A DNA stretch of 64,000 bases from a virus. Its lineage: Duplodnaviria > Caudoviricetes. The notes beneath the pieces are model-generated. The model did not search any database. It was given only the letters and a program-made list of their open reading frames with translations, and was not told the origin of the DNA. Each line of letters starts with the position of its first letter. The first letter of the stretch is position 1. The position numbers and the translations under genes are program-made. Below, piece after piece: positions 17,324 to 54,449 of this stretch. Location of the stretch: IMG/VR virus record IMGVR_UViG_2636415425_000001, positions 32,001 to 96,000 of that record. The stretch is one strand, 5' to 3'.

Positions 17324-17517
17324 TGCGATCGCGACGACCTGTGGCGCCGCCGAAGCTCTTTGTGCAGGCCGGTGACGAGAGGCTCAGCGCGCCGCTGGCC
17401 GCACCGGGACAGGATGGCGACCGCTCTATCGAGCGTGCAGAACGGCAGGCGACGCATGATCCGCATGGCGACGACGCGCCGACCGGGGCGCTCGTGATAC
17501 GACTGCCGCCCGTACAC
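17320..17517 (-). CDS. Small basic hypothetical protein between terS and terL
   Basis: 65 aa; its stop overlaps the terL ATG (ATGA). Confidence 0.45.
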   Translation of the reverse strand: MYGRQSYHERPGRRVVAMRIMRRLPFCTLDRAVAILSRCGQRRAEPLVTGLHKELRRRHRSSRSQ

Positions 17518-17522
17518 GCCGG

Positions 17523-17978
17523 CTACTCATTGACCGCGGTGTTGTCGATCACCAGGCCGATCTTTGGCGGCTCAGGCGGCTGAAACGCTCCCGACGCCGC
17601 AACTCGTTCTGCCGCGGCCTTGCGCTCGGCCTTCTTGCCGACCTTCTCCGGCGCAGGTGGTGCAGCCGGCACTTCGCCGCCCGCCCTGCCCAGATCCGCG
17701 ATCGCCTGCGCGGCCGCCGACACCCGAGTCATCTCCTCGAGCTTCTTGATGCAGGTGGCGTTGCCCTTCTTCGCCTGCTTGAACAGGAGCCCGACCACCT
17801 CGGCCCGCTTCTTGGCCACGCCGGTCGCGATCTCGTCAGGGAAGGACTTTGCCAACGTCGGCGTCGAGATCCCGAGCACCCGAGCGCATTCGTCCTGGGA
17901 CATTCCGCACGCGATCCACTCTTCGACCTTCGTGCGCTGCGCTTTCGTCGGTTTGAACGCCGGCCGACCTCGGGCCAT
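17523..17978 (-). CDS. terS: Terminase small subunit
   Basis: MARGRPAFKPT... HTH (MSQDECARVLGISTPTLAK), AKKGNATCI; upstream of terL. Confidence 0.8.
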   Translation of the reverse strand: MARGRPAFKPTKAQRTKVEEWIACGMSQDECARVLGISTPTLAKSFPDEIATGVAKKRAEVVGLLFKQAKKGNATCIKKLEEMTRVSAAAQAIADLGRAGGEVPAAPPAPEKVGKKAERKAAAERVAASGAFQPPEPPKIGLVIDNTAVNE

Positions 17979-18019
17979 GCCGAAACTCCAATTTCTTTGC
18001 CGTTCTTGGCGTTCCGGAC

Positions 18020-18115
18020 AAATTTTCCGGCCAGCCAAAAAAAATTGCGCGAATGAGCCCCCGTGCGGTCCGTGCCCCCGCCGGTTCCCAGACTTTCCGA
18101 CCCCATACCCCTTGG
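18020..18115. other. Probable cos/packaging-initiation region
   Basis: Minus strand reads GGGGTATGGGGTCGGAAAGTCT...GGACCGCACGGGGGCTC..CGCGCAATTTTTTTT just upstream of terS. This G-run/GACC/T-run pattern resembles the cos regions of HK97-like phages. Confidence 0.5.
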
Positions 18116-18559
18116 CCGAGCATGGCCGGCCGGCTTGCGGCGGGTTGGCGTGTCGTTAGCGCTGGCGTGCGATAGGCCGAGGCGCGTAGCCTGGCCGATT
18201 AGTGTCAACCCTGCAGGCTACATGCTGGCGCCGCTGGCGCCGCGCCGCGCGCGCGGTAGCCTTCCGCGCTTCTGTCTCGAATAGCTGGCGCTAGTGGCGT
18301 TGCGCGGTTGACGTCGCGGCCTTGCATCGATCCGCCGAGGCCGAGGCCAGAAATGCAAAACCCGCCGAGGCTTCCCGCGGCGGGTTGGCTGCAGTGACAC
18401 TGCGCCGAATGCCTGTTCTGAATCATAACTGGAGTCGGACTGTCAAACCCGGTTCCGCTACTCGGCGGTGCATGACGGCGCCGCGCGGCCTCGGCCTCTC
18501 CCTCTTCTGTGATAGCTATTGCTTACGGACTGTTGAAACTCACGGAATAGGGAAACCCA

Positions 18560-18871
18560 ATGACTGCAGCAAAGGCGGATAAGACGGCGCCGAGGCAAGC
18601 CGGCAAAGGCCGCGCCTATGCCTCGGCCGGCGCCGCAATGCGAATCAGCGCGGCCGAATTCATGGCTTGGCAGGAAGAGCTACGCCTATCCAATGGCGCC
18701 GCAGCTGCAGCGCTATTCATCTCGCCCAATACCGTTACAGCGGTGCGCGCGGAAGGCGGTAGCGCTGAACTGGCGCTGAAGTGTCGCGCCATCGCCGCCG
18801 GCCTTTCGCCAGCGCTACCCATGCAAGAGGCCTTTCGCCTCGGCCGAATTGCCGCGATCCTGCAGGAATAG
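18560..18871 (+). CDS. XRE-like HTH protein at the start of the accessory array
   Basis: ISAAEFMAWQEELRLSNGAAAAALFISPNTV...LKCRAIAAGL. Confidence 0.7.
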   Translation: MTAAKADKTAPRQAGKGRAYASAGAAMRISAAEFMAWQEELRLSNGAAAAALFISPNTVTAVRAEGGSAELALKCRAIAAGLSPALPMQEAFRLGRIAAILQE

Positions 18872-18945
18872 AGCCGCAATTCCCTCTAGTGTGAGTCCGG
18901 CCGGGCTAAAGGCTATCTTTTTTCACAGAACAGCGAATTAGGGGA

Positions 18946-18975
18946 TTGACACGCGCCGCGCTTTATAGGCATGTG
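18946..18975 (+). promoter_or_regulatory. Putative sigma70 promoter for the array
   Basis: Perfect TTGACA at 18946; weak -10. Similar TTGAC-N16/17-CATG/CATT arrangements occur at 20560 and 25880. Confidence 0.4.
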
Positions 18976-19018
18976 CGGTTTGTGAGGCGCGATTGTGCGC
19001 AAATCTAAAGGCCGCGAA

Positions 19019-19192
19019 ATGAACGCTTTCATTTCCTCTTGCATCGCAAATCCGGCTTTGGCCGGTTTCCTCTTTGCTGCGATCTATTCCCTTTGCTGGG
19101 CTGGCCTAGCTCCCTTCCTGTATGCGCCGGCAAAGCCTCGGCGCCTCATGATCCGGCGCCGCGCGCGCCGTTCCAGTTCGCCGCGCCGCTAA
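19019..19192 (+). CDS. Small membrane protein
   Basis: 57 aa; one TM segment plus an Arg-rich tail; follows repeat A1. Confidence 0.6.
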   Translation: MNAFISSCIANPALAGFLFAAIYSLCWAGLAPFLYAPAKPRRLMIRRRARRSSSPRR

Positions 19193-19243
19193 CCCGGCAA
19201 GGCTCAACCCGCGCAATCGTGCGCAAATCGAAAAGGTAAGACA

Positions 19244-19429
19244 GTGACAAACTCAACCGTGAAAAGCCTCTTGCACCATGCGGCCGCGGCGATCCGGGTT
19301 GGAAACCTCACACTCGCATTGCGGCTTGTGTCCAATGCCGAATGCCTGGCCTCGGCGGACGAAACCATTTCCGCGGTGCGCCTCGGCCATATTCGCACCG
19401 CGCGGCTTGCGCTCGCAATCGCGAACTGA
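19244..19429 (+). CDS. Hypothetical protein
   Basis: 61 aa after repeat A2 and SD. Confidence 0.65.
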   Translation: MTNSTVKSLLHHAAAAIRVGNLTLALRLVSNAECLASADETISAVRLGHIRTARLALAIAN

Positions 19430-19442
19430 GGAGCGCGCGACA

Positions 19443-19655
19443 ATGGCAACCGCCACAATCAAAAAGCGCGATCATGTCACCTATGTTTGCAGCGCTGGTG
19501 TCACCGTTACCGCCATCGTTCGCACCGCGCACCGCGACGGTACCGCTACGGTTGAGGCCCGGCATATGCTGGACTCGGCCGGCAATATCCGCGGTTGCTA
19601 TCTCGGTTACCGCTACCGTTTCGACGCCAGCGATCTAACCCGGGTTGAGGCATAA
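19443..19655 (+). CDS. Hypothetical SH3-like small protein
   Basis: 70 aa MATATIKKRDHVTY...; SD GAGGAG. Confidence 0.65.
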   Translation: MATATIKKRDHVTYVCSAGVTVTAIVRTAHRDGTATVEARHMLDSAGNIRGCYLGYRYRFDASDLTRVEA

Positions 19656-19660
19656 CGCAC

Positions 19661-19900
19661 ATGGCAAAGCCTGATGATTTGACCGTGTACGCCTCGGCCG
19701 GATATGCCGCGCCGGATTCCACAAATCCGCACCTCTGGAGTAGCGCAACACACATTGCCTATTGCCTCGGCCAATGGTTTCACGCAACCGGCCGGCCGGC
19801 GCCGCGCGCGGTCCGCATGTCCCGCGGCCTTTCGATCCGCGCAAACGATATGCTGATACGCTGGGATGCTAAAACCGGCGCATGCGAGCGTATCAACTAA
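19661..19900 (+). CDS. Hypothetical protein
   Basis: 79 aa; SD GAGG. Confidence 0.6.
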   Translation: MAKPDDLTVYASAGYAAPDSTNPHLWSSATHIAYCLGQWFHATGRPAPRAVRMSRGLSIRANDMLIRWDAKTGACERIN

Positions 19901-19991
19901 CGCGATTTGCAGCCTATGCCGTGCACGTCACGGCATAACCGGCAAACCGCCGAAACCGCGCAATTGTGCGCAAACTGAAAAGGAAACCGCT

Positions 19992-20096
19992 ATGAAGTAT
20001 CGCAAGCATGACTCCGACCGCCGGCCGATGGACAAGCGGACTCGGCGCGCCGCGGTGCGCAACGGAAAGCGCTCGTTTCTGAATTCGTGCCTCTGA
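19992..20096 (+). CDS. Very basic 34-aa peptide
   Basis: MKYRKHDSDRRPMDKRTRRAAVRNGKRSFLNSCL after repeat A3 and SD. Confidence 0.55.
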   Translation: MKYRKHDSDRRPMDKRTRRAAVRNGKRSFLNSCL

Positions 20097-20107
20097 GGGA
20101 TACGCCA

Positions 20108-20563
20108 ATGCGATGGACGTTTGACCAATGGTTGACGGCATGCGGCGCGGAAATGTCGCTCCAGTTTAATTGGACGCTGGAGCATTCCGGGTTGCGCGGT
20201 TTCGATTGGAGCGCGGCCTATGGCCGAGGCCTCACGGTCCGCGCGGCTTGTGACGCGGCTTACGATCATGTGCAGGAAACTGCACTAGACGGCGCCGTCT
20301 ATTTCAATTGCTGCACTGGCAACACGGCGCCGGATTGGTCCGCCTTCCGTTCGCTCGAAATTGGCGGATGCAAAATGGTGAGCAATTCCGCTGGCGAAAG
20401 CTACGTGCACGGGAATCAGGCGCCGGACGATTCCGCTTTTTGGACTGTCTACGCTCGCGAGCATGACGGTTGCGCGCTGGCGATTACCGATTGCGGAATC
20501 CTCACGGAAACCCACGCGATAGCGGAAACGCTTTCCCGGCTTTCCGGCCTTCCCCTGATTTGA
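20108..20563 (+). CDS. Hypothetical protein
   Basis: 151 aa; SD GAGGG; FWTVYAR..DG..AITD motif. Confidence 0.65.
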   Translation: MRWTFDQWLTACGAEMSLQFNWTLEHSGLRGFDWSAAYGRGLTVRAACDAAYDHVQETALDGAVYFNCCTGNTAPDWSAFRSLEIGGCKMVSNSAGESYVHGNQAPDDSAFWTVYAREHDGCALAITDCGILTETHAIAETLSRLSGLPLI

Positions 20564-20655
20564 CGTTGCGACACTGCGCAGCATGTCTGCGCAGCACGGA
20601 ACGCCAAAGCGGACCAACGCGCGATTGTGCGCAAACTTGAAAAGGACAACGGCCA

Positions 20656-20898
20656 ATGCCTTGGAAACTGGAACTGCAGGAAACCCGGCGCGGTTGCCAA
20701 ATGCTGGAAACGACACCGCGCTATGACGTTCTCTTGAACGGCGCGCGAACCGGCCAGCTGTATTTCAACACGCGCGGTTATGTCGGATATCTGCCGACGC
20801 CGGCCGGCGGAAAGATCGATATCGGAGAGAAGGGAATCACGGCGTTTCGTCGCGAGGTTTCCGCGCTCAACCGGGAAGCTAGGAACCTGGCCGGCTAA
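20656..20898 (+). CDS. Hypothetical protein
   Basis: 80 aa after repeat A4. Confidence 0.7.
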   Translation: MPWKLELQETRRGCQMLETTPRYDVLLNGARTGQLYFNTRGYVGYLPTPAGGKIDIGEKGITAFRREVSALNREARNLAG

Positions 20899-20936
20899 CC
20901 CGCGCGATTGTGCGCAAATTGAAAGGACAGACTACA

Positions 20937-21128
20937 ATGGCACGATATGGCGGCGATCCGCGATGGATCATTACCAAATATCCGACCAATGACCGCAACG
21001 GCCGTTTCATCCCGGTAGGAACGCGCGCGTTCTACTATCCCGCTTCCAAACGCATGTTGACCGGCGCCGAGGCGGAACAGGCAAGCCGTGACTTTGAGGC
21101 CGCGCGCTTTGACGAAAGCATGGGGTAA
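20937..21128 (+). CDS. Hypothetical protein
   Basis: 63 aa MARYGGDPRWIITKY... after repeat A5. Confidence 0.7.
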   Translation: MARYGGDPRWIITKYPTNDRNGRFIPVGTRAFYYPASKRMLTGAEAEQASRDFEAARFDESMG

Positions 21129-21133
21129 CGGAA

Positions 21134-21433
21134 ATGGATTTTGCAGCATTCCAAGCCGCCGCGGCCGAGCTGGATAACCGGATGACAACGGCCGGCGCGC
21201 GCCTCGGCGCCGTGACAGAAAGCCTTGCGGCCGAGATGGGGATTCCGGCGCGCGGTCCGATGGGATTGACGCCCGATCGAATTAAGTTCGATCCGCGATA
21301 CCGGCTTGCGAAGGCCGCGGCCGATATCGCCTTTTCGGAACTGCGCGCATTCAATGCCCGGTATGCCCGGCGGTTCAAGAAAGAGATACGCGCCGCGATT
21401 GACGCGCGGCGCCGTGCCAAGGCAACGGCCTGA
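21134..21433 (+). CDS. Hypothetical helical protein
   Basis: 99 aa; GPMGLTPDRIKFDPRY. Confidence 0.7.
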   Translation: MDFAAFQAAAAELDNRMTTAGARLGAVTESLAAEMGIPARGPMGLTPDRIKFDPRYRLAKAAADIAFSELRAFNARYARRFKKEIRAAIDARRRAKATA

Positions 21434-21497
21434 CCTGGCCTCGGCCTTCCCTCAATTCTCGGCGCGATTGTGCGCAAATCAGAAAGGACAATGGACC

Positions 21498-22589
21498 ATG
21501 CAACAGGTTGATTTGATCGCGGCAAAGGCTGCAAAGGCAACGGAACGGCGCGCGCTCGCAATCGTCGCGTATGACAACGCAACAGCGAATCCCGATTGCG
21601 CGAACTGGCGCGCGGTTGCCGATTTGCTTAGGCTCGCATTGCCGGCGCCGAAAGCCGGATCCGCCGCGGCCAAGATCCCGGACGGCGCGGCCGATCATTG
21701 GGCGGACTATGTGATTCCGGCAAGCGCGACCAAACGTCTAGGCAAATCGCCTATTATCGTTGTCACGTTCTCTTGCGGCGCCGTGGTACGCGCGCCGGCA
21801 GTTTCCCTTCCCGGCAAGCCGGTCAATATCGGCCGCGGCTTGCGTGTTGCCTTTGCCTTCTACCGGGCACGGATCGCACGGGAATTCGGCAAGGCCTCGG
21901 CCATTGGTTCCGATTGTGTCGCGGTTCCGGCCATCGTTTCCGTTGCCTGTGACGTTGCCGGCGCCGAGTATTCCGCCGAGGAATGCAACGCGCGAACGGC
22001 CGAATTCCGCCGCGGCCGTTTCGATCATATCGCGCTTTCGGCCGAGGCCTCGGCCTTGCCGGAAACCGCCGAGGCCGGCGAGTTGACGCGCGCCGACTTC
22101 TACCGCGGCCATTACCTCATTGCCTCGGCCGAGGCCGAGATTTTGGCCGGCGCCAATGAGGATCACGCGGCCGAGCTCGGCGCGCAGATTGCCGACTATC
22201 GGTCGCGTCTCGGCGGTATGGCCTGGCTGGAGATTGAAGCGCGGCGCCGCGCCATCATTCGCGCGGCCGAGGCCGAGGCGAAAGCCGCGGCAAAGGCCGA
22301 GGCCGAGGCCGGCCGGCGCGCCGAGCAAGAGGCCGAGGCCCGCGCAGCTGCAGCCGAGGCCGAGGCGTCGCGGTTGCGGCTTGTCGCGGACAATTCCGCC
22401 AGCGTCGAAACCGCGTCGGCTTCCCTCCCGGATACGGCCGATTCCCTCCCGGTTGCGCCCGCGCCCAAATCGATCGCGCCTATCCCGGTTGCGCCTTCCC
22501 GCGCCGCGCGCTTCCTGGCCTCGTCATCGCTCGGCGCGCCTCGGCCTTCCCTCCCGGTTGCGCCTTTCTGCGCGATCCGCGCCAGCTAG
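21498..22589 (+). CDS. Hypothetical protein with Ala/Glu coiled coil
   Basis: 363 aa after repeat A6. Confidence 0.7.
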   Translation: MQQVDLIAAKAAKATERRALAIVAYDNATANPDCANWRAVADLLRLALPAPKAGSAAAKIPDGAADHWADYVIPASATKRLGKSPIIVVTFSCGAVVRAPAVSLPGKPVNIGRGLRVAFAFYRARIAREFGKASAIGSDCVAVPAIVSVACDVAGAEYSAEECNARTAEFRRGRFDHIALSAEASALPETAEAGELTRADFYRGHYLIASAEAEILAGANEDHAAELGAQIADYRSRLGGMAWLEIEARRRAIIRAAEAEAKAAAKAEAEAGRRAEQEAEARAAAAEAEASRLRLVADNSASVETASASLPDTADSLPVAPAPKSIAPIPVAPSRAARFLASSSLGAPRPSLPVAPFCAIRAS

Positions 22590-22604
22590 TCGGAGTCGCC
22601 AGCA

Positions 22605-22802
22605 ATGCGAGCCTATGGATTCGATATCTTGCCCGATGGCGCAAAGTTTCGCCTGATTGATCGCTGCGAATTCAACAATTGGGGCGAGCTATCGCCGCGG
22701 TTTGATACTCCAGCCGAGGCCGAGGAATACGCGCGCCGCTGCGACGAATTCAAGCGCGGCAAGCGTTCAAGCGTCGAATTGCGCGCTTGGGAACTGCACT
22801 AG
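22605..22802 (+). CDS. Hypothetical protein
   Basis: 65 aa; SD GGAG; FDTPAEAEEYA motif. Confidence 0.6.
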   Translation: MRAYGFDILPDGAKFRLIDRCEFNNWGELSPRFDTPAEAEEYARRCDEFKRGKRSSVELRAWELH

Positions 22803-22872
22803 GCCGCGGCGCGCCTCGGCCTCACGGAATGCAACACGCGCGATTGTGCGCAAACGGAAAGGAAAACAGACC

Positions 22873-23286
22873 ATGCGGAAGCCGAATCCCAACAAAGAGA
22901 AGGCCGCGCAGCTGGCGCGCCAGATTGCCAACATGACGGAAGAGCAGAAGGCGATTTGGCTGCAGCGCGCGCCGATCCTCACCGCGGACGCGCGGCCGAT
23001 ATCCGGGAAAAATCACATGCTGGCGGCGATGCAATGCGAAGGCGCAACCATGCTCGGCGGCTTCAATCAATGGCTTTCCGCCGGTCGCGTGGTGCGCAAA
23101 GGCGAGTCCGCAATCTACATTTTCGCGCCGTCCGGCCGGCGCGCGACGGCCGAGACCTCGGCGGCGCCGAGCGCGGAAGGCGCCGCGGCCGAGGCCGTGG
23201 CGGAGTCCGTGCGGTTTATCCTGGTCCCGGTTTTCGACGTCTCGCAAACCGAGGAAAAGCCGGCCGAGCAAGCCGCCGCGGCCTAG
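22873..23286 (+). CDS. ArdC-like (N-terminal ssDNA-binding domain) anti-restriction protein
   Basis: SGKN..LA...GGFNQWLSAGRVVRKGESAIYIFAP...VPVFDVSQTE signature; follows repeat A7. Confidence 0.8.
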   Translation: MRKPNPNKEKAAQLARQIANMTEEQKAIWLQRAPILTADARPISGKNHMLAAMQCEGATMLGGFNQWLSAGRVVRKGESAIYIFAPSGRRATAETSAAPSAEGAAAEAVAESVRFILVPVFDVSQTEEKPAEQAAAA

Positions 23287-23371
23287 TCCCGGGTACGGCC
23301 GATTTCCCCAATCCCTCGGCTACGGCCGATTTTCTCGGCGCAATTGTGCGCAAACCAAAGGAGCTAACGAC

Positions 23372-23641
23372 ATGCCGAAATTGATTCTCGATTGCCACCC
23401 CGCAACCGTCCAGGGCGATTGCATCTTGACGTCCATCATGCAAGCCGGCCCCGTGGCGCGCCTCGTTGTCGATATCGCGCGCGCCGCGGACGCCGAAAGG
23501 GAATTCGCGGATTACTGCAAGAGCATTGAGGCAACCGGCAAGCCGGCGAGCGTTTCAATGCGGATCGCCCGCGCCGATCGCTCCCCGCCTGGCTTCAAGA
23601 AACTGAAGGGCGCGGCCGGCTTTCACAGTGTCAATTGCTGA
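23372..23641 (+). CDS. Hypothetical protein
   Basis: 89 aa after a repeat B pair and A8. Confidence 0.7.
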   Translation: MPKLILDCHPATVQGDCILTSIMQAGPVARLVVDIARAADAEREFADYCKSIEATGKPASVSMRIARADRSPPGFKKLKGAAGFHSVNC

Positions 23642-23651
23642 GGGCGCCGAA

Positions 23652-23846
23652 ATGACTTTCCGCGCCTATGACTTTCCTGCGGCCGTCATCCGGATTTATG
23701 CGGATGGCAGCTGCAGGGAGTTTCCGAAATGGTGCCTAATGATAAGCGTCGAACGCTCGCGCGCCTATGTCGCCAGTGCACTGCGCGAGTTGCGCAGCTA
23801 TCGGCGGCGCCTCGCCGCTGAACCGCTTCGCCCCGCCGCCGCCTGA
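23652..23846 (+). CDS. Hypothetical protein
   Basis: 64 aa; SD GAGGG. Confidence 0.55.
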   Translation: MTFRAYDFPAAVIRIYADGSCREFPKWCLMISVERSRAYVASALRELRSYRRRLAAEPLRPAAA

Positions 23847-23874
23847 TTTCCCATCACAGAACAAAGGAACCGTT

Positions 23875-24282
23875 ATGCATCTCACCTTGCCCCGCTCGCC
23901 GCTCGCCGCGCTCGTTAACGAGGCCTCAAAGTATCGATGGCGCATCCGCTACGCGCTGCAGCGCTACGGCGTAGCCTGGCGCTACGCTCGCCAGCGCTCA
24001 ACCCGCGATGACGGATTGACGCTGCTTTTCGACGCCGAGCATATCGCCGGGATTTACGGCCTCGCCTGCTTGTCCGAGGAATCCGTTTTGGATCGCGCGC
24101 GCGACCTATACGGCGACATTCCCGGTCTTGAGCGATGGGCGGCGGACGCTTGCGCGCGCGTCAACTCGAAACATGGCGGCGGCGATGGCGAAATGATCGG
24201 CGCGGCGGAAGATTGGGCGCTTGAACTGATGGCCGAATACGCCGCGCACGATGGCGTGACGCTGGCAGAACTCGCCGAGTAA
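23875..24282 (+). CDS. Hypothetical protein
   Basis: 135 aa; SD AAAGGA. Confidence 0.7.
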   Translation: MHLTLPRSPLAALVNEASKYRWRIRYALQRYGVAWRYARQRSTRDDGLTLLFDAEHIAGIYGLACLSEESVLDRARDLYGDIPGLERWAADACARVNSKHGGGDGEMIGAAEDWALELMAEYAAHDGVTLAELAE

Positions 24283-24289
24283 CCCCCGG

Positions 24290-24313
24290 CGCCGGCTGAT
24301 TCCCCAGCCGGCG
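24290..24313. terminator. GC-rich hairpin after ORF 23875..24282
   Basis: CGCCGGCTG-ATTCCC-CAGCCGGCG; no clear U-tract. Confidence 0.35.
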
Positions 24314-24419
24314 CGACACCTCCCGACTACGGCCGATTTTGCGCGGTGGATGACGCGCGGACCTGGCCGCAGCCGCTCAACCATCCGCGCAATAGTGCGC
24401 AAAGCGAAAGGACGCTCCC

Positions 24420-24653
24420 ATGAGAACGATTAAGCCCGCGACACGCGACAATGCAATCCAACTCAACAACGCAATAGCGCTGATGAAGAAGGCCCGCGGC
24501 TGGTTGCGCGGCGCCGATAGCCCGAAAGCGTTGGAAGCGCTGCAAGCGGCGCTGAAGAGCGCCGAGGGCGCAAAGCGACACATGCAGCACAGACTCAACC
24601 GGGCCAATCCGCCTGGCCTTCGCGCGCCCGGCGTCGATCACATGCCGGGATAG
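24420..24653 (+). CDS. Hypothetical helical protein
   Basis: 77 aa after repeat A9. Confidence 0.7.
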   Translation: MRTIKPATRDNAIQLNNAIALMKKARGWLRGADSPKALEALQAALKSAEGAKRHMQHRLNRANPPGLRAPGVDHMPG

Positions 24654-24718
24654 CCTCCGGGCTACGGCTGATTTTCCACCCCTCGCATACGGCTAATTTT
24701 CACAAGGAGATCACCATC

Positions 24719-25624
24719 ATGAGCACAATCACGATTTGGACTTGCACCACGGAAGGCGACAACTGCGGGACCGAAACCACGGTGCACGCAACCCAAGGCG
24801 AGGCCGTGGACTACGTGCGCGCAGCGCTCCGCGATATTCTCAAAAACCGCAGACCCGAGCGCCTGGCAGCGATCGCGGCGGCGACCGCCGAGAACATCAA
24901 AGAACTCTGGGAAGATGCGGTTGACGGACCTTGCATCATCGAAGAGCAGTCCGTGACGCTTCCGCCCTTTGCGGTCGCGATCTACGAAACCCGCTACGGC
25001 GACGAAACGCGCCTCTACGCCAACACGGACGACGCGCAGACCTGGCGCCGCGAGATCGCCGCCGAGAACTGGGCGGCGCGGATGGACGAGGAACGGCCGG
25101 CCGATGCCGACGAGACCGCAGACGCCTATTTCCATCACGTCGGCGAGGCGCGCGGCGACTTCTTCCGGGTCGAAGAGCTGGAGATGATCGGCGGCACAGT
25201 CCCGGTTGCGCCTGCCCAGGACTGGCGCCAGATCGCCCGCGACTTGGCCGGCGCGCTCGATGCATGCACCCATCAGATTGGCCAGATGCGCGGCATGTTC
25301 GACGACGAGGACGGCACGATTGCGGAAGCAGTTTCCGACGCTGACGCCGCCTCCGAAGCCTACCGCCGAGCCGCCGCCGGCCTCCCGGCTGCGCCCGCGC
25401 TGCAGCCCATCGGTCAAGATGACCGCGCCTGCTCGGAAGGCTGGGGCCTCTTCGAGAACAGCGACACAGGCCGGCTTGAGATTCAGGCCGACGCCGAGTC
25501 CTCAATCTTTGTGCGTGACGGCGTGAGCCACGACGACGAGGCCGAGGCATTCGTAAAAGCAAAGGCCGCCGAGGGCAGCGAGTACCACGCCGCGGCGCTC
25601 GCCCGTGTCGGTACGGCCCAATAG
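24719..25624 (+). CDS. Acidic multi-module hypothetical protein
   Basis: 301 aa, very Asp/Glu-rich; SD AAGGAG after a repeat B pair. Confidence 0.75.
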   Translation: MSTITIWTCTTEGDNCGTETTVHATQGEAVDYVRAALRDILKNRRPERLAAIAAATAENIKELWEDAVDGPCIIEEQSVTLPPFAVAIYETRYGDETRLYANTDDAQTWRREIAAENWAARMDEERPADADETADAYFHHVGEARGDFFRVEELEMIGGTVPVAPAQDWRQIARDLAGALDACTHQIGQMRGMFDDEDGTIAEAVSDADAASEAYRRAAAGLPAAPALQPIGQDDRACSEGWGLFENSDTGRLEIQADAESSIFVRDGVSHDDEAEAFVKAKAAEGSEYHAAALARVGTAQ

Positions 25625-25683
25625 GCCCGGCTACGATCGATTTTCCACCCCCGAGCTACGGCCGATTTTGAGGAGCAGCACAC

Positions 25684-25875
25684 ATGCACTTGAGCGAGAC
25701 GACAAACGGAAAGCTGGCGGAGGTCTCAACCCAGATTGAGGAGCTAATCCGCTGGGCTGAAGCGGACGCCGAGCACGCCCGCGAAAACGACGCGCGTCAA
25801 ACCGCGCGAGATGATCGGAGCCGCGCCGCGAAGCTCCGCAAGGCGCTCGCCCTGGTGCGAGCGTGCGAGCGATAG
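25684..25875 (+). CDS. Hypothetical coiled-coil protein
   Basis: 63 aa; SD GAGGAG after a repeat B pair. Confidence 0.65.
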   Translation: MHLSETTNGKLAEVSTQIEELIRWAEADAEHARENDARQTARDDRSRAAKLRKALALVRACER

Positions 25876-25952
25876 CCACTTGACACCGCCGGCAATCTGA
25901 CTCATTGAACAACCCCCGCGCGATTGTGCGCAAATTGAAAGGATGAAGACAC

Positions 25953-28316
25953 ATGCAGCATTCCGCCACCTATTCGCCCGATGATAACAAGCTGCGCCTT
26001 TACCCGGCGCACCGGCTCGACGCCGAGGAGCACGCGCGCGTAAAGGCGCACGGCTTCAAATGGGCGCCGCGTCAAGAATTGTTCGTTGCGCCGATGTGGA
26101 CGCCAGAACGCGAAGACCTGCTGATTGAGATGTGCGGCGAGATCGGCGACGAGGACAAGAGCCTGGTAGAGCGCGCCGAGGATCGCGCCGACCGTTTCGA
26201 CGAATACAGCGACAAGCGGCTGTCGGAAGCTAACCGCGCGCGCGAGGCCGTGGACCAGATCGCGGAGCGGTTCGCGATGGGGCAGCCGATTTTGGTCGGC
26301 CATCATTCCGAGAAGAGCGCACGCAAGGACAAGGAGCGGATGGACTCCGGCATGCGCAAGGCAATCAAGCTGTGGGACACTTCCAAATATTGGACGGCCC
26401 GCGCCGAGGGCGCCATCGCCCACGCGAAATACAAGGAACTGCCGGCGGTGCGTCATCGCCGCATCAAGGGCATTGAGTCCGATAAGCGGAAGCTGGAGCG
26501 CCAGCAGGCCGAGACCGAAAGGCAGCTGAAAGCCTGGCAGATCGTCGCCGGCATCACGGACCCGGAGAAGCAGCGCGCGGCCGGTTTGGCCGTGGCCAAC
26601 ACCGGCGGTTATTGGTCGATGTCGTTTCCGCTGGCCGACTATCCGCGCGACCCGCCGGCCTCGCAGTATGAGGGACCGATGGGCCTTTGGTCGGCGATTG
26701 AAGGGAACGTCATCACCGCCGCCCAGGCCGCCGCTATCGCAATTCCTGGCCTGGAGCGCGGCGGGCCTCGGCGGGAGCGCTGGATTGCGCACTATGACAA
26801 CCGGCTGGCCTATGAACGGGCGATGTTGGCCGAGCAGATCGGCGCGGAGGCCACTGCCAACCCGCTTGCAGACCGTTTCGCCTTCGCCGTTGGTGGTCAG
26901 GTGCAAACCCGCCGCAGCGACGATTGGCTTACGATTGTGAAGGTCAGCAAGGGCGCTAACGGCTCGGTTTCCAGCATTCAAACCGCAGCCCCGTCAGGAT
27001 CGCGCGGGCGCGGCGTTTACTGGAAGGTCGAAAGCGTCCGCGACTATCGCGCGCCGACCGCCGAGAACGTCGCCGCGGCGAAGGCCGCCACGAAGCTCCC
27101 GCCGATTTGCAACTATCCCGGCGAGGGATTCCGCGAAATGACTGAAGCCGAATGGAAGGCGCGCCGGCAGTTCTCGGATTTCTCCTATATCGGCACGGTG
27201 AAGGCGACCGAGACCCAAGGCGCGCACCGCGTCCGCCAGATGCCGACGCCCGGCGAGTTCTGGAAGGCGCAAAAGGTTTTCATCACGGATGCAAAGCGCG
27301 TCGATCCGCCCAAGATCGCGCCGGCACCAGAGCCGACCGAACCGGCCGAATTTGTGGCTGAGTATGTCGCGCCGCCCGCGGTCGATCTTGACGCCATGCT
27401 GGCCACGGTCGGCGAAATCGTGGGCGCGCCGGTCGAGGCCGCGGCCCAGGACGAGCCCGAGGCCGCGCCGGCGCTGGCCCCGGATGCGCCCGCGGAAGAA
27501 CCGCGACGCCTCGGCGACGCCAAGGCGGAGGCGCAGCGCATCGGCGCGGAGATCATCACCGGACTCGGCCAATTCCGTGTTGGCCTCGGCCAGCACGTTA
27601 CCGACTGGTGCGACGACGAGGCGACCGCCTGGCGGCAGTTCTGCGGACTGGCTGGCGTGCCGTTTGAGGCCGAGGCCGTGCCGGCTGATCTGCGGCCGCG
27701 CGTTCTCGCCCCGGTCCCGGATACGGCCGATTTGCCGGCGCCGACCGCGGCGGACAGTTTCGAGGCCATGCGGGCGATGTTGAAGGGCGGCGGCGTGCAA
27801 GTCGTCGTCGCGCCTCAACTCTTCCCGACGTCGGACGAACTCGCCGCGGACGTTGCGGAGGCCGCGGACATCCGGCCCGGGCAACGCATCTTGGAGCCGA
27901 GCGCCGGAACCGGCGCCCTGATCGAGGCTGCGCGCAACTGCGCCAATGATCTGCAGGTGGTGGCGGTCGAGATCAACACGAAGCTGTGCCATGCATTGGC
28001 GGACCGCTTCACCGGCATGCAAATGACCGTCATCAATGCGGACTTTCTCGACATGGCCGGCGTCACGGACAAGTTTGATCGGATCATCATGAATCCGCCT
28101 TTCGAGCGCGGCGCCGATATCAAGCATATCGAGAACGCGCGGCGGTTTCTGAAGCCTAACGGCCGCCTGGTCGCCATCTGTGCCGACGGCCCGCGCCAGC
28201 GCGCGAAGCTCGAACCGATCGCGGTGGAGTATCGCGCCCTGCCCGCGGGATCCTTCAAGGCTGCTGGCACCATGGTCAACACGGCGTTGGTCGTGATCGA
28301 CGGGCCGCCGGGATAG
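25953..28316 (+). CDS. DUF3560-domain protein fused to an amino-DNA methyltransferase
   Basis: GQPILVGHHSEKSARKD (DUF3560-like); C-terminal QLFPT, ILEPSAGTG (motif I) and IIMNPPF (motif IV). Confidence 0.85.
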   Translation: MQHSATYSPDDNKLRLYPAHRLDAEEHARVKAHGFKWAPRQELFVAPMWTPEREDLLIEMCGEIGDEDKSLVERAEDRADRFDEYSDKRLSEANRAREAVDQIAERFAMGQPILVGHHSEKSARKDKERMDSGMRKAIKLWDTSKYWTARAEGAIAHAKYKELPAVRHRRIKGIESDKRKLERQQAETERQLKAWQIVAGITDPEKQRAAGLAVANTGGYWSMSFPLADYPRDPPASQYEGPMGLWSAIEGNVITAAQAAAIAIPGLERGGPRRERWIAHYDNRLAYERAMLAEQIGAEATANPLADRFAFAVGGQVQTRRSDDWLTIVKVSKGANGSVSSIQTAAPSGSRGRGVYWKVESVRDYRAPTAENVAAAKAATKLPPICNYPGEGFREMTEAEWKARRQFSDFSYIGTVKATETQGAHRVRQMPTPGEFWKAQKVFITDAKRVDPPKIAPAPEPTEPAEFVAEYVAPPAVDLDAMLATVGEIVGAPVEAAAQDEPEAAPALAPDAPAEEPRRLGDAKAEAQRIGAEIITGLGQFRVGLGQHVTDWCDDEATAWRQFCGLAGVPFEAEAVPADLRPRVLAPVPDTADLPAPTAADSFEAMRAMLKGGGVQVVVAPQLFPTSDELAADVAEAADIRPGQRILEPSAGTGALIEAARNCANDLQVVAVEINTKLCHALADRFTGMQMTVINADFLDMAGVTDKFDRIIMNPPFERGADIKHIENARRFLKPNGRLVAICADGPRQRAKLEPIAVEYRALPAGSFKAAGTMVNTALVVIDGPPG

Positions 28317-28391
28317 TCCCGGCTGCGCCCTCCCGCTTACGACCGATTTCCAAACCCTCCCGGCTACGATCGATTTTGAAAGGAACACAGC

Positions 28392-28886
28392 ATGCCTGAC
28401 CGTTTCGAATACACTTCGGAAGAGCGGATGTTGCTCGCCCGCCTGGCCCAAGGCCGGCAAACCGACCGGGATTGCATCCCTGAGCGCGTGCTCGTCAATC
28501 GAGGCATGGCGCGCCGGGTCGATCCCGGAGAGATCGAGATCACACCAGCCGGTCGCGACGAGCTCGCACGGATCGCCTCGAGCGCTGCTTTCTCCGGTCC
28601 AATCGACGGCGCACGCGCCGGCATCATCGAGGCGCTCGGCGGCGCGTTCGCAACGCCTCCGGCTTCGCCACCGCCTGGCCGGCAACTGACCGACGATGAG
28701 AAGGCCTTCATCGCTCGCATGGCGCCGCACGTCATGGCCGGCAAGACCCTCGAGGAAGCCGGGGCGGCCGTCCTCCAGGATGATGAACGCTTGTGGCTGA
28801 CCGCCATGGAGGATTCGGACGTCGGCCGCGCGATCCGCGGCGAGCTCGCCAAGGCGACATACGTCGCAGCGCGCGCGAAGCCATAG
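28392..28886 (+). CDS. Hypothetical protein (possible wHTH N-terminus)
   Basis: 164 aa; LVNRGMA...EITPAGRDEL. Confidence 0.65.
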   Translation: MPDRFEYTSEERMLLARLAQGRQTDRDCIPERVLVNRGMARRVDPGEIEITPAGRDELARIASSAAFSGPIDGARAGIIEALGGAFATPPASPPPGRQLTDDEKAFIARMAPHVMAGKTLEEAGAAVLQDDERLWLTAMEDSDVGRAIRGELAKATYVAARAKP

Positions 28887-28959
28887 GCGCGGCTGCCCCG
28901 ACTACGACTGATTTCCCATCACCCCCTCGGCTACGGCCGATTTGAAAGGAGAATTACCC

Positions 28960-29331
28960 ATGCTCGTCACCGTCAAGGCCGGCGCCAAGGTGGAAGGCCA
29001 CACCTTCAGCCAGGACTCGAACCAAAACTTTGGGCGGGAGAAAGCCGAAGGCCTGATCAAAGATGGCCGCGCAAGGCCCGCGGCGTTCGACGCCGAGGGA
29101 ATCTGCCGGATCAACACGCGGTTCGAAGCATGGCTCAACGAACATGGCGCGCTCGCGATCGGGTCTTGCGGCGATGCCTTTCTGCATCTCTCGCCGGAAT
29201 TTCCGTTGGCTTACTTGCCCGAGGCACTGCAAGCCTATCAAGCGGGGCACCACCACGGCATGAGTTACGGCCGCAGCAAACTGCAGAACGAGCTTCTGAA
29301 CTTGCTCGGGGCCGAGCCATGCAAGATATGA
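28960..29331 (+). CDS. Hypothetical protein
   Basis: 123 aa; SD AAAGGAG after a repeat B pair. Confidence 0.65.
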   Translation: MLVTVKAGAKVEGHTFSQDSNQNFGREKAEGLIKDGRARPAAFDAEGICRINTRFEAWLNEHGALAIGSCGDAFLHLSPEFPLAYLPEALQAYQAGHHHGMSYGRSKLQNELLNLLGAEPCKI

Positions 29332-29606
29332 CGGGGGAAGAGACAGTCACCGCGGCCGGCTACAGGGTTGCCACTCGCGCCGAGTTCGATGCCGCCACCG
29401 ACGTGCCCGCGGGCGTGCGCCTGGTGGCCGATCGCCTCTTCAAACGCTGGGGCGGCGACTTCGTTGTTTACGATCCGGCCGGCGGTGATGACGGCTGGCT
29501 GCTGATCGACGACGACCGCGAGCAGATCATAGGCGAGACCGTGGAACACCTCGGACGGCTCAAACCTGAGCCGACTGCGCCGCCGGCACAAGGCTCGCTG
29601 TTTTGA
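29328..29606 (+). CDS. Hypothetical protein with C-terminal QGSLF
   Basis: 92 aa; ATGA-coupled. Confidence 0.65.
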   Translation: MTGEETVTAAGYRVATRAEFDAATDVPAGVRLVADRLFKRWGGDFVVYDPAGGDDGWLLIDDDREQIIGETVEHLGRLKPEPTAPPAQGSLF

Positions 29607-29642
29607 CACCCGGATACGATCGATTTTGAAAGGAGACCGAGC

Positions 29643-29816
29643 ATGCCGCGGAACTGGATCGTGCGCGAGCGCCACCCATTCGATGATGGATACTGGGCGC
29701 GCTATGACGGCAAACGCCGCCCCAACAAGTCATTGACCGAGAAACGTGAGGGCTGGGAGGCTTGCGACCGCGAGATTGCCGAAGAAGCCCACGACGCTGA
29801 GGAGGCTGTGCTATGA
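29643..29816 (+). CDS. Small hypothetical protein (absent from the ORF track)
   Basis: MPRNWIVRERHPFDDGYWARYDGKRRPNK...EGWEACD, 57 aa; SD AAGGAG after repeat B. Confidence 0.6.
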   Translation: MPRNWIVRERHPFDDGYWARYDGKRRPNKSLTEKREGWEACDREIAEEAHDAEEAVL

Positions 29817-30181
29817 GGCAGGTCCGCCGCGTCCCCGCCGATTGGCAGCACCCTCGCAATTCCTGGGGTCGATATACGCCGCTCCTTGAGTCCGCCCCGG
29901 ATGCACCCGCGCCCGATCTTTCCCGCTGCATGCCGGCATGGCCGGAGGCGGAGCGCACCCACTGGCAGTTGTACGAGACCACCAGCGCCGGCACGCCGGT
30001 TTCGCCGCCCTGCCCGTCGCCCGAGGCCTTGGCCAAATGGCTTGCCGACCACCATGTGGAGGCCGCACCAGGTTTCACCGGAACGGAGGCGCAATGGCTC
30101 GGCGCCATCAAGCGCGGCGGCGTCATTCCGCCGGTGATGACCGTCGGCAAGCAGCAGGTCTCGCCGCTGGATTACACCTGA
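29813..30181 (+). CDS. Conserved phage hypothetical protein
   Basis: 122 aa; RQVRRVPADWQHP and WQLYETTSAGTPVSP motifs. Confidence 0.7.
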   Translation: MRQVRRVPADWQHPRNSWGRYTPLLESAPDAPAPDLSRCMPAWPEAERTHWQLYETTSAGTPVSPPCPSPEALAKWLADHHVEAAPGFTGTEAQWLGAIKRGGVIPPVMTVGKQQVSPLDYT

Positions 30182-30275
30182 TCGGCCGGGACTCCCGGCT
30201 ACGATCGATTTTGTGCTACCCCCTCGGCTACGGCCGATTCCGGGCGATTGTGCCCAACCGGAAAGGAACTCTCAG

Positions 30276-30599
30276 ATGTCGCCCCCCAGATTTGTTCACC
30301 GCAAGATCTCGGCCGAGGACTTCAAGGCCGAGTTGGCGAAGCAGGGCATGTCGGTGCCGGCGTTCGCCCGTGTCTGGTGCCAGAACCTTTCGACCGTCAC
30401 GAAATGGGCCAACGGCGGGAACGATATCCCGACCTGGGTGCCGATCGCGCTGACCATGATGACGCTGCCAAACGCTCACGGGACCGCCCGTATGGCGGCG
30501 GCGGCGATGATCGAAGAAGATCGGCTGCATCCCGAGCTCGGAAAATTCCCGTACCAGAAGCTTCGGCAGATGCCGGCGGACGACGAGATCGAGGAATAG
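30276..30599 (+). CDS. XRE-like HTH protein ending the array (Aca-like position)
   Basis: ISAEDFKAELAKQGMSVPAFARVWCQNLSTVTKWANGGNDIPTWV; its leader has a B pair and the variant A hairpin. Confidence 0.75.
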   Translation: MSPPRFVHRKISAEDFKAELAKQGMSVPAFARVWCQNLSTVTKWANGGNDIPTWVPIALTMMTLPNAHGTARMAAAAMIEEDRLHPELGKFPYQKLRQMPADDEIEE

Positions 30600-30605
30600 T
30601 CCCGG

Positions 30606-30821
30606 CTACGATCGATTTTGCGTGCCCCGGCTGCGCCTTTTCTTCGCCGCGTGCCGTTTCTTGGGCGGCGCTCGCTTCGCCGCTGGCGCCGGCGGCGCGT
30701 CCTTCGCTGCGGCCGCGGCGTCGAGGGCATCGAGCTCCCGCTTCTGCGCCTGCATCCGTTCCCACCTGGCTTCGCGTTGAGCGCGCAGCGCGTCGGCGCG
30801 CGGTGACGGCTCCCTGCTCAT
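30606..30821 (-). CDS. Small basic hypothetical protein
   Basis: 71 aa; ATGA-coupled. Confidence 0.45.
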   Translation of the reverse strand: MSREPSPRADALRAQREARWERMQAQKRELDALDAAAAAKDAPPAPAAKRAPPKKRHAAKKRRSRGTQNRS

Positions 30822-31006
30822 GACGGCGACCTTTGCCAGAACCAGCGGCGCCGGCGCAACAGCACGATTGCCTCTTGCGATCGGCCAGCAACGCTGATCG
30901 GTCGCCAACCGTCCGCAATTCGGCTGTTTAACTCTCGCCGCAACCATCCCTGCGACTGCGTGGAGTAAATGCTTTGGAGATCGTATTCGTAGCGATAGAG
31001 CAGCAT
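30818..31006 (-). CDS. Small hypothetical protein
   Basis: 62 aa; SD GGAG; LNSRIADGWRPIS. Confidence 0.5.
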   Translation of the reverse strand: MLLYRYEYDLQSIYSTQSQGWLRRELNSRIADGWRPISVAGRSQEAIVLLRRRRWFWQRSPS

Positions 31007-31017
31007 CGGTCCGACTC

Positions 31018-31284
31018 CTAACCTGCGTCCGTGGGGACTTCGCCGACCTCGAGCATGACCGGCGGATGGCTCTGCGAGATGATCCGGAGGTGCACCGGCG
31101 CGCCGGCGTTCAACCGGGCCAACTCTTCCGCCGTCGGCATCCACGCGGACGACAGCGAGGGCAGCGAATTATTCAGCACCTCAACGCGGATCGGCAGATC
31201 CATGCACTTGCCATCCCTCTCCTCGTCCCAGTTCCTCGGCGCCTCCAGCACCTTGTTGCAGCCGGAGATCCTTGCGATTTCCAT
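31018..31284 (-). CDS. Conserved phage hypothetical protein
   Basis: 88 aa; SAWMPTAEELARLNAGAPV...HPPV. Confidence 0.7.
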   Translation of the reverse strand: MEIARISGCNKVLEAPRNWDEERDGKCMDLPIRVEVLNNSLPSLSSAWMPTAEELARLNAGAPVHLRIISQSHPPVMLEVGEVPTDAG

Positions 31285-31294
31285 TAGTACCCTC

Positions 31295-31639
31295 CTACGA
31301 TCGCATCCGGTCCGCTCGAGCCTGCAATCCCTTGCGGACGTTGTGCTCGGCGCATTTGCAGGCGCCGTTGTTCAGGTCTAGGGCGCGGGATCGATCGTCC
31401 CTGATCTCGACGACATGATCGGCGTACATCTGGTCGCCGTTGGCCCGGCTGCGCTCGCAGCGGACGCCATCCTCGACATGCTCGCAGCGCCAGCCGGCGC
31501 GCTTCTTGACCTGCAGCGCCCACCGCTGGTGCTCGGCAGTCTGGTAGTGCGGGTCCGCGCGCTTCTCCGGAGGCTTCACCTTCCTGGTGTCGAGGGTCGG
31601 AACGCGCGGGCCCAGCGTGGGAATTCGAGACCGCTTCAT
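31295..31639 (-). CDS. Packaging-associated HNH endonuclease (HK97 gp74-like)
   Basis: RAGWRCE...C...ADHVVEIRDD...LDLNNGACKCAEHN. Confidence 0.85.
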   Translation of the reverse strand: MKRSRIPTLGPRVPTLDTRKVKPPEKRADPHYQTAEHQRWALQVKKRAGWRCEHVEDGVRCERSRANGDQMYADHVVEIRDDRSRALDLNNGACKCAEHNVRKGLQARADRMRS

Positions 31640-39235: not shown

Positions 39236-39585
39236 GCCGGCTCCTTCCGTCGCCGGCGCGGCGCGTCCTCGGCGCCGAATGCCGCCTTGATCGTCACATC
39301 CGCTTGGATGCGCTCCCAAAGCGCATTGCAGGCAGCCGCTGCTCTATCCCACGCGTTTCCGAACTTTTGGAGCTTCGGCGACCGAGCGATCGCGTTCTGC
39401 CGCCTCTCCCATCGGCGCTCAAACCACCGCGCGCGCTTGCGTAACTGCTTGTGGCGGTCGCGCATGGCTTGGTCGCCCATCCGCCAATGGCGGCCGCACA
39501 TTATCTTCACGCCTTCGGCATCGCCGGCCTCGCGCTTGAAGGTCCGCCCGCAGCCCGGGATGCAGCACCTGATGCGTTCCGTCAT
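39232..39585 (-). CDS. Zn-finger-like hypothetical protein
   Basis: CCIPGC...CGRHW. Confidence 0.65.
   Translation of the reverse strand: MTERIRCCIPGCGRTFKREAGDAEGVKIMCGRHWRMGDQAMRDRHKQLRKRARWFERRWERRQNAIARSPKLQKFGNAWDRAAAACNALWERIQADVTIKAAFGAEDAPRRRRKEPA

Positions 39586-54372: not shown

Positions 54373-54449
<77 letters not shown>

Follow-up and report, generated by a model that had tools for sequence, protein, structure and literature searches.

The window analysed here, the whole stretch of 64,000 nucleotides (nt) covering positions 32,001 to 96,000 of the Caudoviricetes record IMGVR_UViG_2636415425_000001, is a Bradyrhizobium prophage in which a 14-nt hairpin motif stands before the Shine–Dalgarno (SD) sequence of eleven genes of a single accessory array. 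Comparison of this array with eleven related ones supports the view of a hairpin element that is specific to one strand and coupled to the ribosome-binding site. Our best reading, a tentative one to which we give a little less than an even chance, is that the motif is a transcribed 5′-leader hairpin that would be read by a phage protein.

A repeated hairpin motif at gene starts

A sequence-only reading of the window had listed eleven repeats at gene starts, and all of them were recovered. GCGCRATHGTGCGC is matched exactly ten times, each time on the + strand, at positions from 18987 to 25918 (chance expectation 0.10; 0 of 100 random shuffles reached ten matches), and the eleventh copy, at 30242, is the variant GGGCGATTGTGCCC, in which positions 2 and 13 are both changed and pairing is kept. 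The accompanying remark that the copies share one orientation and sit only at gene starts likewise holds: every copy lies on the + strand and precedes the start of an open reading frame (ORF). On its 3′ side the motif is followed in 11/11 copies (numbered 1 to 11 in sequence order) by AA, 3–6 variable bases, AAAGG and then ATG or GTG, with the start codon 18–23 nt past the motif end in each case and opening an ORF of 34 to 787 amino acids (aa). By our own ORF calls, 11 of the 24 ORFs between 18560 and 30599 have the motif; those without it are mostly translationally coupled (gap of at most 15 nt, or overlap) or preceded by a second repeat family, GCTACGRYYGATTT. The loop reads ATTG in eight of the GCGCRATHGTGCGC copies, ATCG in one and ATAG in one, and ATTG again in the copy at 30242; position 5 is G in seven of the eleven copies and A in four.

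A covariance model trained on the relatives together with the window copies, training copies that match by construction, returned exactly these 11 copies in the window (E ≤ 2.4e-5), and its next match there lay on the opposite strand at E = 0.05. Across the whole 8.27 Mb genome, a search for the motif plus AA with one mismatch allowed gave the ten array copies and only five scattered one-mismatch sites. An Rfam scan of 17500–31500 yielded no match for the motif; its only hit at E ≤ 1 was an unrelated viral pseudoknot model (E = 0.6, below the gathering score). The motif string was not found in a literature search, and a topical search gave nothing relevant among the papers listed, to judge by their titles.

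Conservation and spacing in related arrays

Searches at the protein level recovered this array from 11 further phages or prophages (G401–G405, G546, G648, G797, G798, G799 and G800). With duplicates counted once (G564 and L048 are the same as G404, and the close pairs are G796 with G648 and L090 with G546), the 12 related arrays, the window array included, span 163.7 kb and together hold about 118 motif copies, or 7–14 copies per phage. Two of the relatives are complete genomes of lower GC content, G799 with 104.6 kb and G800 with 94 kb and direct terminal repeats. Their GC content of about 54–55%, as against 62–64% for the Bradyrhizobium prophages, goes together with a retained array architecture, which suggests that the phage family spans hosts or lifestyles.

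In two scans that left the tested pairs free, the 12 arrays held 121 and 103 sites on the sense strand and 3 and 2 on the antisense strand. Counted from the end of the motif, the first GG of the SD follows after 8–11 nt in 113 of 116 copies and the start codon after 18–23 nt in 104 of 116; the linker between motif and SD is A-rich and variable in sequence. All motif sites fall within a single array of about 12 kb, both in records of 94–132 kb and in the prophage's own genome.

In the genus sample, the array and the gene of a 107-aa helix-turn-helix (HTH) protein occur together in 4/4 genomes, the own one included, and both are missing from the other 397 of 401, a co-occurrence that is linkage on one phage family and not independent proof. 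No genome of a family-level sample of 401, except the own genome, held more than two exact copies, and a megablast of 18000–31000 against the phage collection gave no match. Distant homologues (43–69% identity) of a DUF3560-methyltransferase encoded in the array (L039–L047 and L049–L072, with many from other phyla and plasmids) showed no comparable repeat. A covariance-model match in L049 (E = 1.4e-4) was rejected, being without SD or start context, as were lone GGGC..GCCC matches in G407, G462, G489, G540 and G517, which are chance sites with no gene-start context. A scan of metagenome contigs with the HTH alignment found only two short loci, L080, with an HTH homologue and no motif upstream, and L081, with a CGGC..GCCA variant. 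A separate search gave 62 HTH clusters, located on numerous metagenome contigs.

Pair-keeping changes and sequence constraint

Pair 2 is Watson–Crick in 118 of 121 sites (105 C–G and 13 G–C, with no excess of hybrids), pair 3 is paired in 101 of 103 and pair 4 in 102 of 103, and pair 1 is G–C in 111 sites, G·U or U·G in four and mismatched in six. Among 113 distinct rows, an alignment that keeps about five likely false positives, 96.5% of cells are paired (92.1 ± 0.4 in shuffles) and 12 cells are changed on both sides (1.1 ± 1.0 in shuffles), values that 0 of 500 shuffles reached in either case; these statistics overstate the support for an RNA stem, because the copies are paralogues or orthologues and independent compensatory events are few. 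The compensatory double change GGGC..GCCC that had been noted before the terminal HTH gene is real: pair 2 is flipped (G2–C13) at the leader of this gene in 12/12 arrays, and elsewhere in only three copies, in G799 and G800.

Further changes are seen in these two genomes. Pair 1 is U·G in two G800 copies and U–A in one G799 copy, and in one G799 copy all four GC pairs are exchanged. The stem and loop variants of G799 (GCGCA.TAC.TGCGC, GCGC.ATACG.GCGC, TCGCA.ATTC.TGCGA, TGCGA.ATTT.TCGCA and GGGCG.CTTAA.TGCCC) have loops of 3, 4 and 5 nt, yet none of them gives up the GC stem, the AA flank or the distance to the SD, a variation in loop length and stem that is hard to square with a fixed-spacing dimer on double-stranded DNA (dsDNA). 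In alignment A2, A6 and G9 are invariant and T10 is nearly so (over 90%), and the conserved centre is asymmetric; this asymmetry and the U·G at pair 1 break the dyad symmetry of a DNA site, while RNA pairing is still intact. The earlier argument that wobble and covariation favour an RNA (or single-stranded DNA) hairpin is supported in part, by the pair-keeping changes in the relatives and not by the fifth-pair wobble, which is poor evidence: in four copies of relatives position 5 is C or T, unpaired with T10. A terminator role of the motif was rejected, as it is followed by AAA and has no U-run.

Candidate readers and promoters

The array is flanked by two small XRE-type HTH-fold proteins, and the HTH identity assigned to both genes from sequence alone agrees with the predicted folds. 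The 107-aa protein, encoded by the last array gene (30276–30599, +) and a candidate reader of the motif, has a predicted XRE HTH fold (predicted local distance difference test score, pLDDT, 85) with Foldseek matches to HigA2, C-protein, MqsA, Aca1 and Aca2 at E 0.015–0.33; the Aca1 and Aca2 structures appear only at ranks 31–46, with E about 0.3. The 103-aa protein, encoded just 5′ of the putative array promoter P1 (18560–18871, +), has a predicted fold with pLDDT 74 and XRE, HigA2 and C-protein matches. It is a distant paralogue of the 107-aa protein, and the two can be aligned across their HTH regions (hhalign E 1e-4, probability 56%). Another candidate reader, a speculative one, is the product of a conserved 34-aa ORF behind copy 3 (19992–20096, +), which is very rich in arginine and lysine, has homologous small ORFs in the arrays of the relatives and gave no family match. 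Its composition is reminiscent of arginine-rich RNA-binding peptides.

A TTGAC[AG] hexamer lies 35–37 nt upstream of the first motif copy in 10 of 12 arrays and 30–33 nt upstream of the methyltransferase-gene copy in eight arrays. The corresponding −35-like TTGACA hexamers of the window are at 18946–18951 (+), for P1, where the −10 element is poor, and at 25880–25885 (+), for a putative internal promoter P2. Given these conserved distances, motif copies 1 and 10 would start at about +1 to +7 of the transcript. In several arrays (window 18946–18986; L035, L038 and L073), the poor −10 region of P1 holds GCGC-ATGT-RCGC, which resembles a shortened hairpin motif and could be a putative DNA operator paired with the RNA site.

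Two further GC-rich hairpins of 8–9 bp, at 20574–20594 and 19916–19936, lie 21–24 nt upstream of copies 4 and 3. Among 10 orthologues of the 8-bp hairpin in the copy 4 leader, five pairs are changed on both sides, which indicates that this intergenic region evolves as structured RNA. Behind the hairpin at 20574–20594 there is a conserved CA-rich stretch and no U-run, and it may be a processing or stability structure.

A proposed leader hairpin read by a phage protein

Four observations lead us to favour the leader hairpin read by a phage protein: the motif is locked to the SD, it is specific to one strand, its loop is sequence-specific, and the leader of the putative regulator gene itself keeps a distinct allele. 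What was observed directly is the conserved repeat, the strand and spacing rules that it follows and its pair-keeping changes and, among the predicted structures, the HTH folds. We infer that the motif is transcribed, that it folds in vivo, that a protein binds it and that translation is affected, and propose the following hypothetical scheme for a temperate Bradyrhizobium phage of roughly 100 kb, in which (i) the module would comprise a 4-bp GC stem (with an optional fifth R–U pair), a loop in which A..GU is fixed, then an A-rich linker of 9 nt and the SD; (ii) over the first part of the early or accessory array, each cistron with an initiation site of its own would have the motif in its transcribed leader, be that 5′ or intercistronic; (iii) a sequence-specific phage protein would bind the mRNA hairpin beside the ribosome docking site and so set the translation of these cistrons jointly, the best candidate being the 107-aa XRE-type HTH protein, whose own leader has the diagnostic hairpin variant; (iv) the two copies close to promoters could have a second role, with their 14 bp serving as a DNA operator. 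The module is probably also a crossover point for genes joining the regulon, because it is the only sequence common to otherwise unrelated cassettes.

A more far-reaching form of this scheme is that of a portable translational 'plug', in which as many as 14 cistrons would each have an identical 14-nt RNA hairpin 9 nt ahead of the SD and one small phage protein would read them all; we regard it as rather doubtful. The reader would be an Aca-like HTH protein at the array end or, less likely, the 34-aa arginine-rich peptide, by analogy with N on boxB. If true, a cassette recombining in behind the hairpin would at once join a phage-wide post-transcriptional counter-defence regulon, and the diverged allele at the regulator's leader (pair 2 flipped) would give hierarchical autoregulation.

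Several points, besides the overstated shuffle statistics, weigh against a protein-read RNA hairpin. The hairpin alone is weak (−5.3 to −6.1 kcal/mol predicted), and with 30-nt flanks the stem pair probability is above 0.5 in 6 of the 11 window copies and at most 0.3 in five. To judge from the aligned copies, the fifth R–U pair is not required. The stems are almost sequence-invariant within the Bradyrhizobium clade, and T10 is changed to C only once among the G5 copies, although G5–C10 would pair. The near-invariance of T10 and of the stems points to a sequence that is read, not to shape alone, and a DNA site fits this equally. Of 184 array starts that lack the canonical core, 24 have a hairpin at the right place; the figure for control starts is 28 of 283, and the enrichment is marginal (shuffles 12.6 ± 3.6, maximum 22). 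Neither HTH protein has an Aca-family sequence match, with no Pfam match at E ≤ 0.01 and none among PDB sequences at E ≤ 10. Proteins of the XRE HTH type classically bind dsDNA, and operators typically have about the size of a 14-bp dyad. A sigma-70-like promoter scan of 17500–31500 gave 0 sites by the criteria of the tool, and P1 and P2 are deduced from conserved −35-like hexamers with poor −10 elements.

Alternative explanations

The most serious alternative, which we consider unlikely, is a dsDNA operator. A dimer of one of the array's XRE HTH proteins would bind the 14-bp dyad GCGC-N6-GCGC and repress the two promoters at +1 to +20, and at the internal copies RNA polymerase elongation would be blocked, in a stoperator-like manner or as multi-operator silencing of an early operon. 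The two XRE-fold HTH genes flanking the array, the operator size and dyad symmetry of the site, the almost invariant stem sequence in about 100 copies with T10 fixed, and the position of two copies right behind promoter-like −35 hexamers are consistent with this, and symmetric changes such as GGGC..GCCC keep DNA dyad symmetry too. Oriented repressor sites in short intergenic spaces are also known in cluster A mycobacteriophages, as far as the cited excerpt extends (PMC9283540). However, the SD spacing of 8–11 nt in 113 of 116 copies is needless for a roadblock, and a symmetric dimer leaves the asymmetric centre (A6, G9, T10), the AA flank and the strict orientation unexplained. In addition, the arm distance in G799 varies (3, 4 and 5 nt), as does the arm sequence, the symmetry is broken by the U·G at pair 1, and the sites are restricted to one accessory array and not spread over lytic genes.

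The tight SD coupling can also be accounted for by an RNA leader that acts without a protein, an explanation that we find improbable. Here the hairpin would keep GC-rich structure further upstream away from the A-rich linker and the SD, and so enhance translation or bound a standby site, or it would mark or protect RNase-processed ends during the processing of a polycistronic early RNA. The presence of the motif at separately initiated cistrons and its absence at coupled ones, its position at the putative 5′ end of two transcripts, the covarying hairpins nearby and the drift of stem and loop sequences in G799 around a constant structure all agree with such a leader. However, with 4–5 bp and −5 to −6 kcal/mol the stem makes a poor obstacle to nucleases, and other structures prevail over it in 5 of 11 contexts. 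Shape alone would not require A6, G9, T10 and the GCGC arms to be as invariant as they are across about 100 copies, and a distinct allele at the regulator gene in 12/12 arrays makes sense only if the sequence is read.

A phage-specific promoter, recognised as DNA by a polymerase or sigma factor of the phage and with its start in the AA just after the motif, or a pure recombination site (a PeSL-like or attC-like crossover of swappable cassettes that plays no part in regulation), is highly improbable. The conserved block of 14–17 nt located 16–22 nt before start codons is promoter-sized, but neither a T7-type RNA polymerase (PF00940) nor sigma-70 region 2 was found in 5/5 phage records at least 90% complete (a weak negative for PF00940, whose control matched no control genome), two copies already stand behind host-type −35 hexamers, and pair-keeping changes and a fixed SD spacing would not be expected of a promoter. 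For recombination, 40 of 202 ends of blastn homology blocks between the window array and the 11 others fall in motif units, which make up 4.5% of the region (the corresponding count for windows of equal size ahead of 11 starts without a motif is 23 of 202), and an 83-nt unit (19903–19985) stands before two different genes in four relatives; homology blocks would, however, end at any conserved island, and the excess is only about 1.7-fold over other gene starts. Integron attC sites are far longer than the motif unit.

Organisation of the prophage and its array

Between 6.3 and 17.3 kb the − strand encodes the large terminase, portal, ClpP-type protease, major capsid and tail tube proteins, and a DnaB-type helicase gene lies at 33.2–34.8 kb. 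The motif-bearing array occupies the + strand from 18.9 to 30.6 kb and comprises about 24 mostly small ORFs. Informative families were found for only two of them, a protein with an ArdC-N-like anti-restriction domain (domain match of 28.1 bits at a cut-off of 22.6, together with an anti-restriction PHROG match) and a 787-aa DUF3560 and methyltransferase protein; the other approximately 20 ORFs gave no informative family (ORFans). The window also has a tRNA-Pro(TGG) at 39271–39353 (−) and a tRNA-Met(CAT) at 54373–54449 (+).

All hairpin copies are on the + strand. Copy 1 (18987–19000; GCGCG ATTG TGCGC), 35 nt 3′ of the −35-like TTGACA of P1, precedes ORF 19019–19192, copy 2 (19211–19224) precedes the GTG-started ORF 19244–19429, and copy 3 (19958–19971) precedes the 34-aa ORF, with the hairpin at 19916–19936, of 8 bp, upstream. 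Copy 4 (20619–20632), with the covarying hairpin at 20574–20594 upstream, stands before ORF 20656–20898; copy 5 (20902–20915) begins 3 nt past the stop of the upstream ORF and is followed by ORF 20937–21128; and copy 6 (21462–21475) precedes a 363-aa ORF (21498–22589). The ArdC-N-like ORF (22873–23286) lies behind copy 7 (22838–22851). Copy 8 (23338–23351), which has two units of the second repeat family upstream, precedes ORF 23372–23641, and copy 9 (24387–24400; loop ATAG) precedes ORF 24420–24653. Copy 10 (25918–25931) lies 32 nt 3′ of the −35-like TTGACA of P2 and before the DUF3560-methyltransferase ORF (25953–28316), and copy 11 (30242–30255; GGGC..GCCC, pair 2 flipped) before the ORF of the 107-aa HTH protein.

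The second repeat family, GCTACGRYYGATTT (in longer form CCCnCGGCTACGRYCGATTTY), has 17 + strand copies in 22431–30618, and 18 matches in the window against 2.5 expected. Its copies often form tandem pairs directly before the SD of hairpin-less genes (24719, 25684, 28392 and about 28960), and they also occur 5′ of hairpin copies 8 and 11, with one copy 3′ of the HTH gene. The family is also found in G799 and G800. Only some versions are capable of pairing (TCGGC-TACG-GCCGA followed by a T-run), and the repeat looks like a sequence motif, not a conserved hairpin. A terminator as its general role was rejected, since the conserved GATCGA version does not pair. The divergent region 18430–18545, between a − strand ORF (18205–18426) and the 103-aa HTH gene, contains the near-identical 13–14 nt repeats CGGACTGTCAAAC and CGGACTGTTGAAAC, which are possibly operators of a separate switch.

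Comparison with known systems

To our knowledge, HTH regulators that bind 5′ untranslated region (UTR) hairpins are a recent discovery, so far tied to the leaders of single anti-CRISPR operons. If the same logic is multiplied across a whole array of swappable genes, it would show how a changing set of early and counter-defence genes can stay under a single control in phages. The motif is a compact RNA motif candidate outside Rfam, in a phage family of a major plant symbiont, and the 12 arrays with their roughly 118 natural variants make a clean system in which to tell recognition of RNA by XRE-type HTH proteins apart from that of DNA.

The PeSL elements of T4-type phages resemble the module as small repeated intergenic cassettes among non-essential ORFans at which gene content differs; in the excerpt cited, they consist of a strong sigma-70 promoter and a terminator stem-loop (PMC2839356). 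Here, in contrast, a promoter-like hexamer accompanies only 2 of 11 copies, AAA follows the motif instead of a U-run, and the hairpin is too weak to terminate. Cluster A stoperators share the many 13–14 bp sites in short intergenic spaces and promoters, with an orientation tied to transcription; by the passages cited, they are asymmetric, genome-wide and bound on DNA by a monomeric two-domain repressor (PMC9283540), whereas the sites described here have dyad symmetry and covarying arms, keep a set distance to the SD and do not extend beyond one array.

The SAS and ESAS repeats of cluster K mycobacteriophages are likewise short and of one orientation, occur only among non-structural genes, stand at a small and constant distance ahead of the starts of unrelated genes and are absent from the host, and a translation role has been proposed for SAS (PMC3203893, as excerpted). 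However, SAS is an asymmetric 13-bp repeat that contains the SD core and lies 3–7 bp from the start codon, and for ESAS the authors, in the same excerpt, found little support for an RNA hairpin (PMC3203893). Our element has 14 nt and a different sequence, lies upstream of the SD, has a stem with pair-keeping changes and occurs in alphaproteobacterial phages.

The likeness to Aca RNA operators that the sequence-only reading had suggested fits the published geometry of Aca1 and Aca2 in the distance to the start codon and, with the putative promoters, perhaps also in the position behind the transcription start. The portion of the source cited describes a short conserved 5′ UTR hairpin directly after the transcription start site, ending about 20 nt before the start codon, with stem covariation and a regulator that reaches neighbouring operons (PMC13551039); there, the gene of the HTH regulator closes a counter-defence operon (PMC13551039), much as that of the candidate reader closes our array, which may include counter-defence genes. 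Unlike the Aca1 and Aca2 systems, the phages described here have 7–14 copies each, one per separately translated cistron and internal ones included, the hairpin is smaller (4–5 bp), no acr gene was identified, and the HTH proteins, whose binding is putative, match no Aca family by sequence. Because of this last difference we do not file the element as an Aca member; by analogy, however, it would work like the Aca RNA operators.

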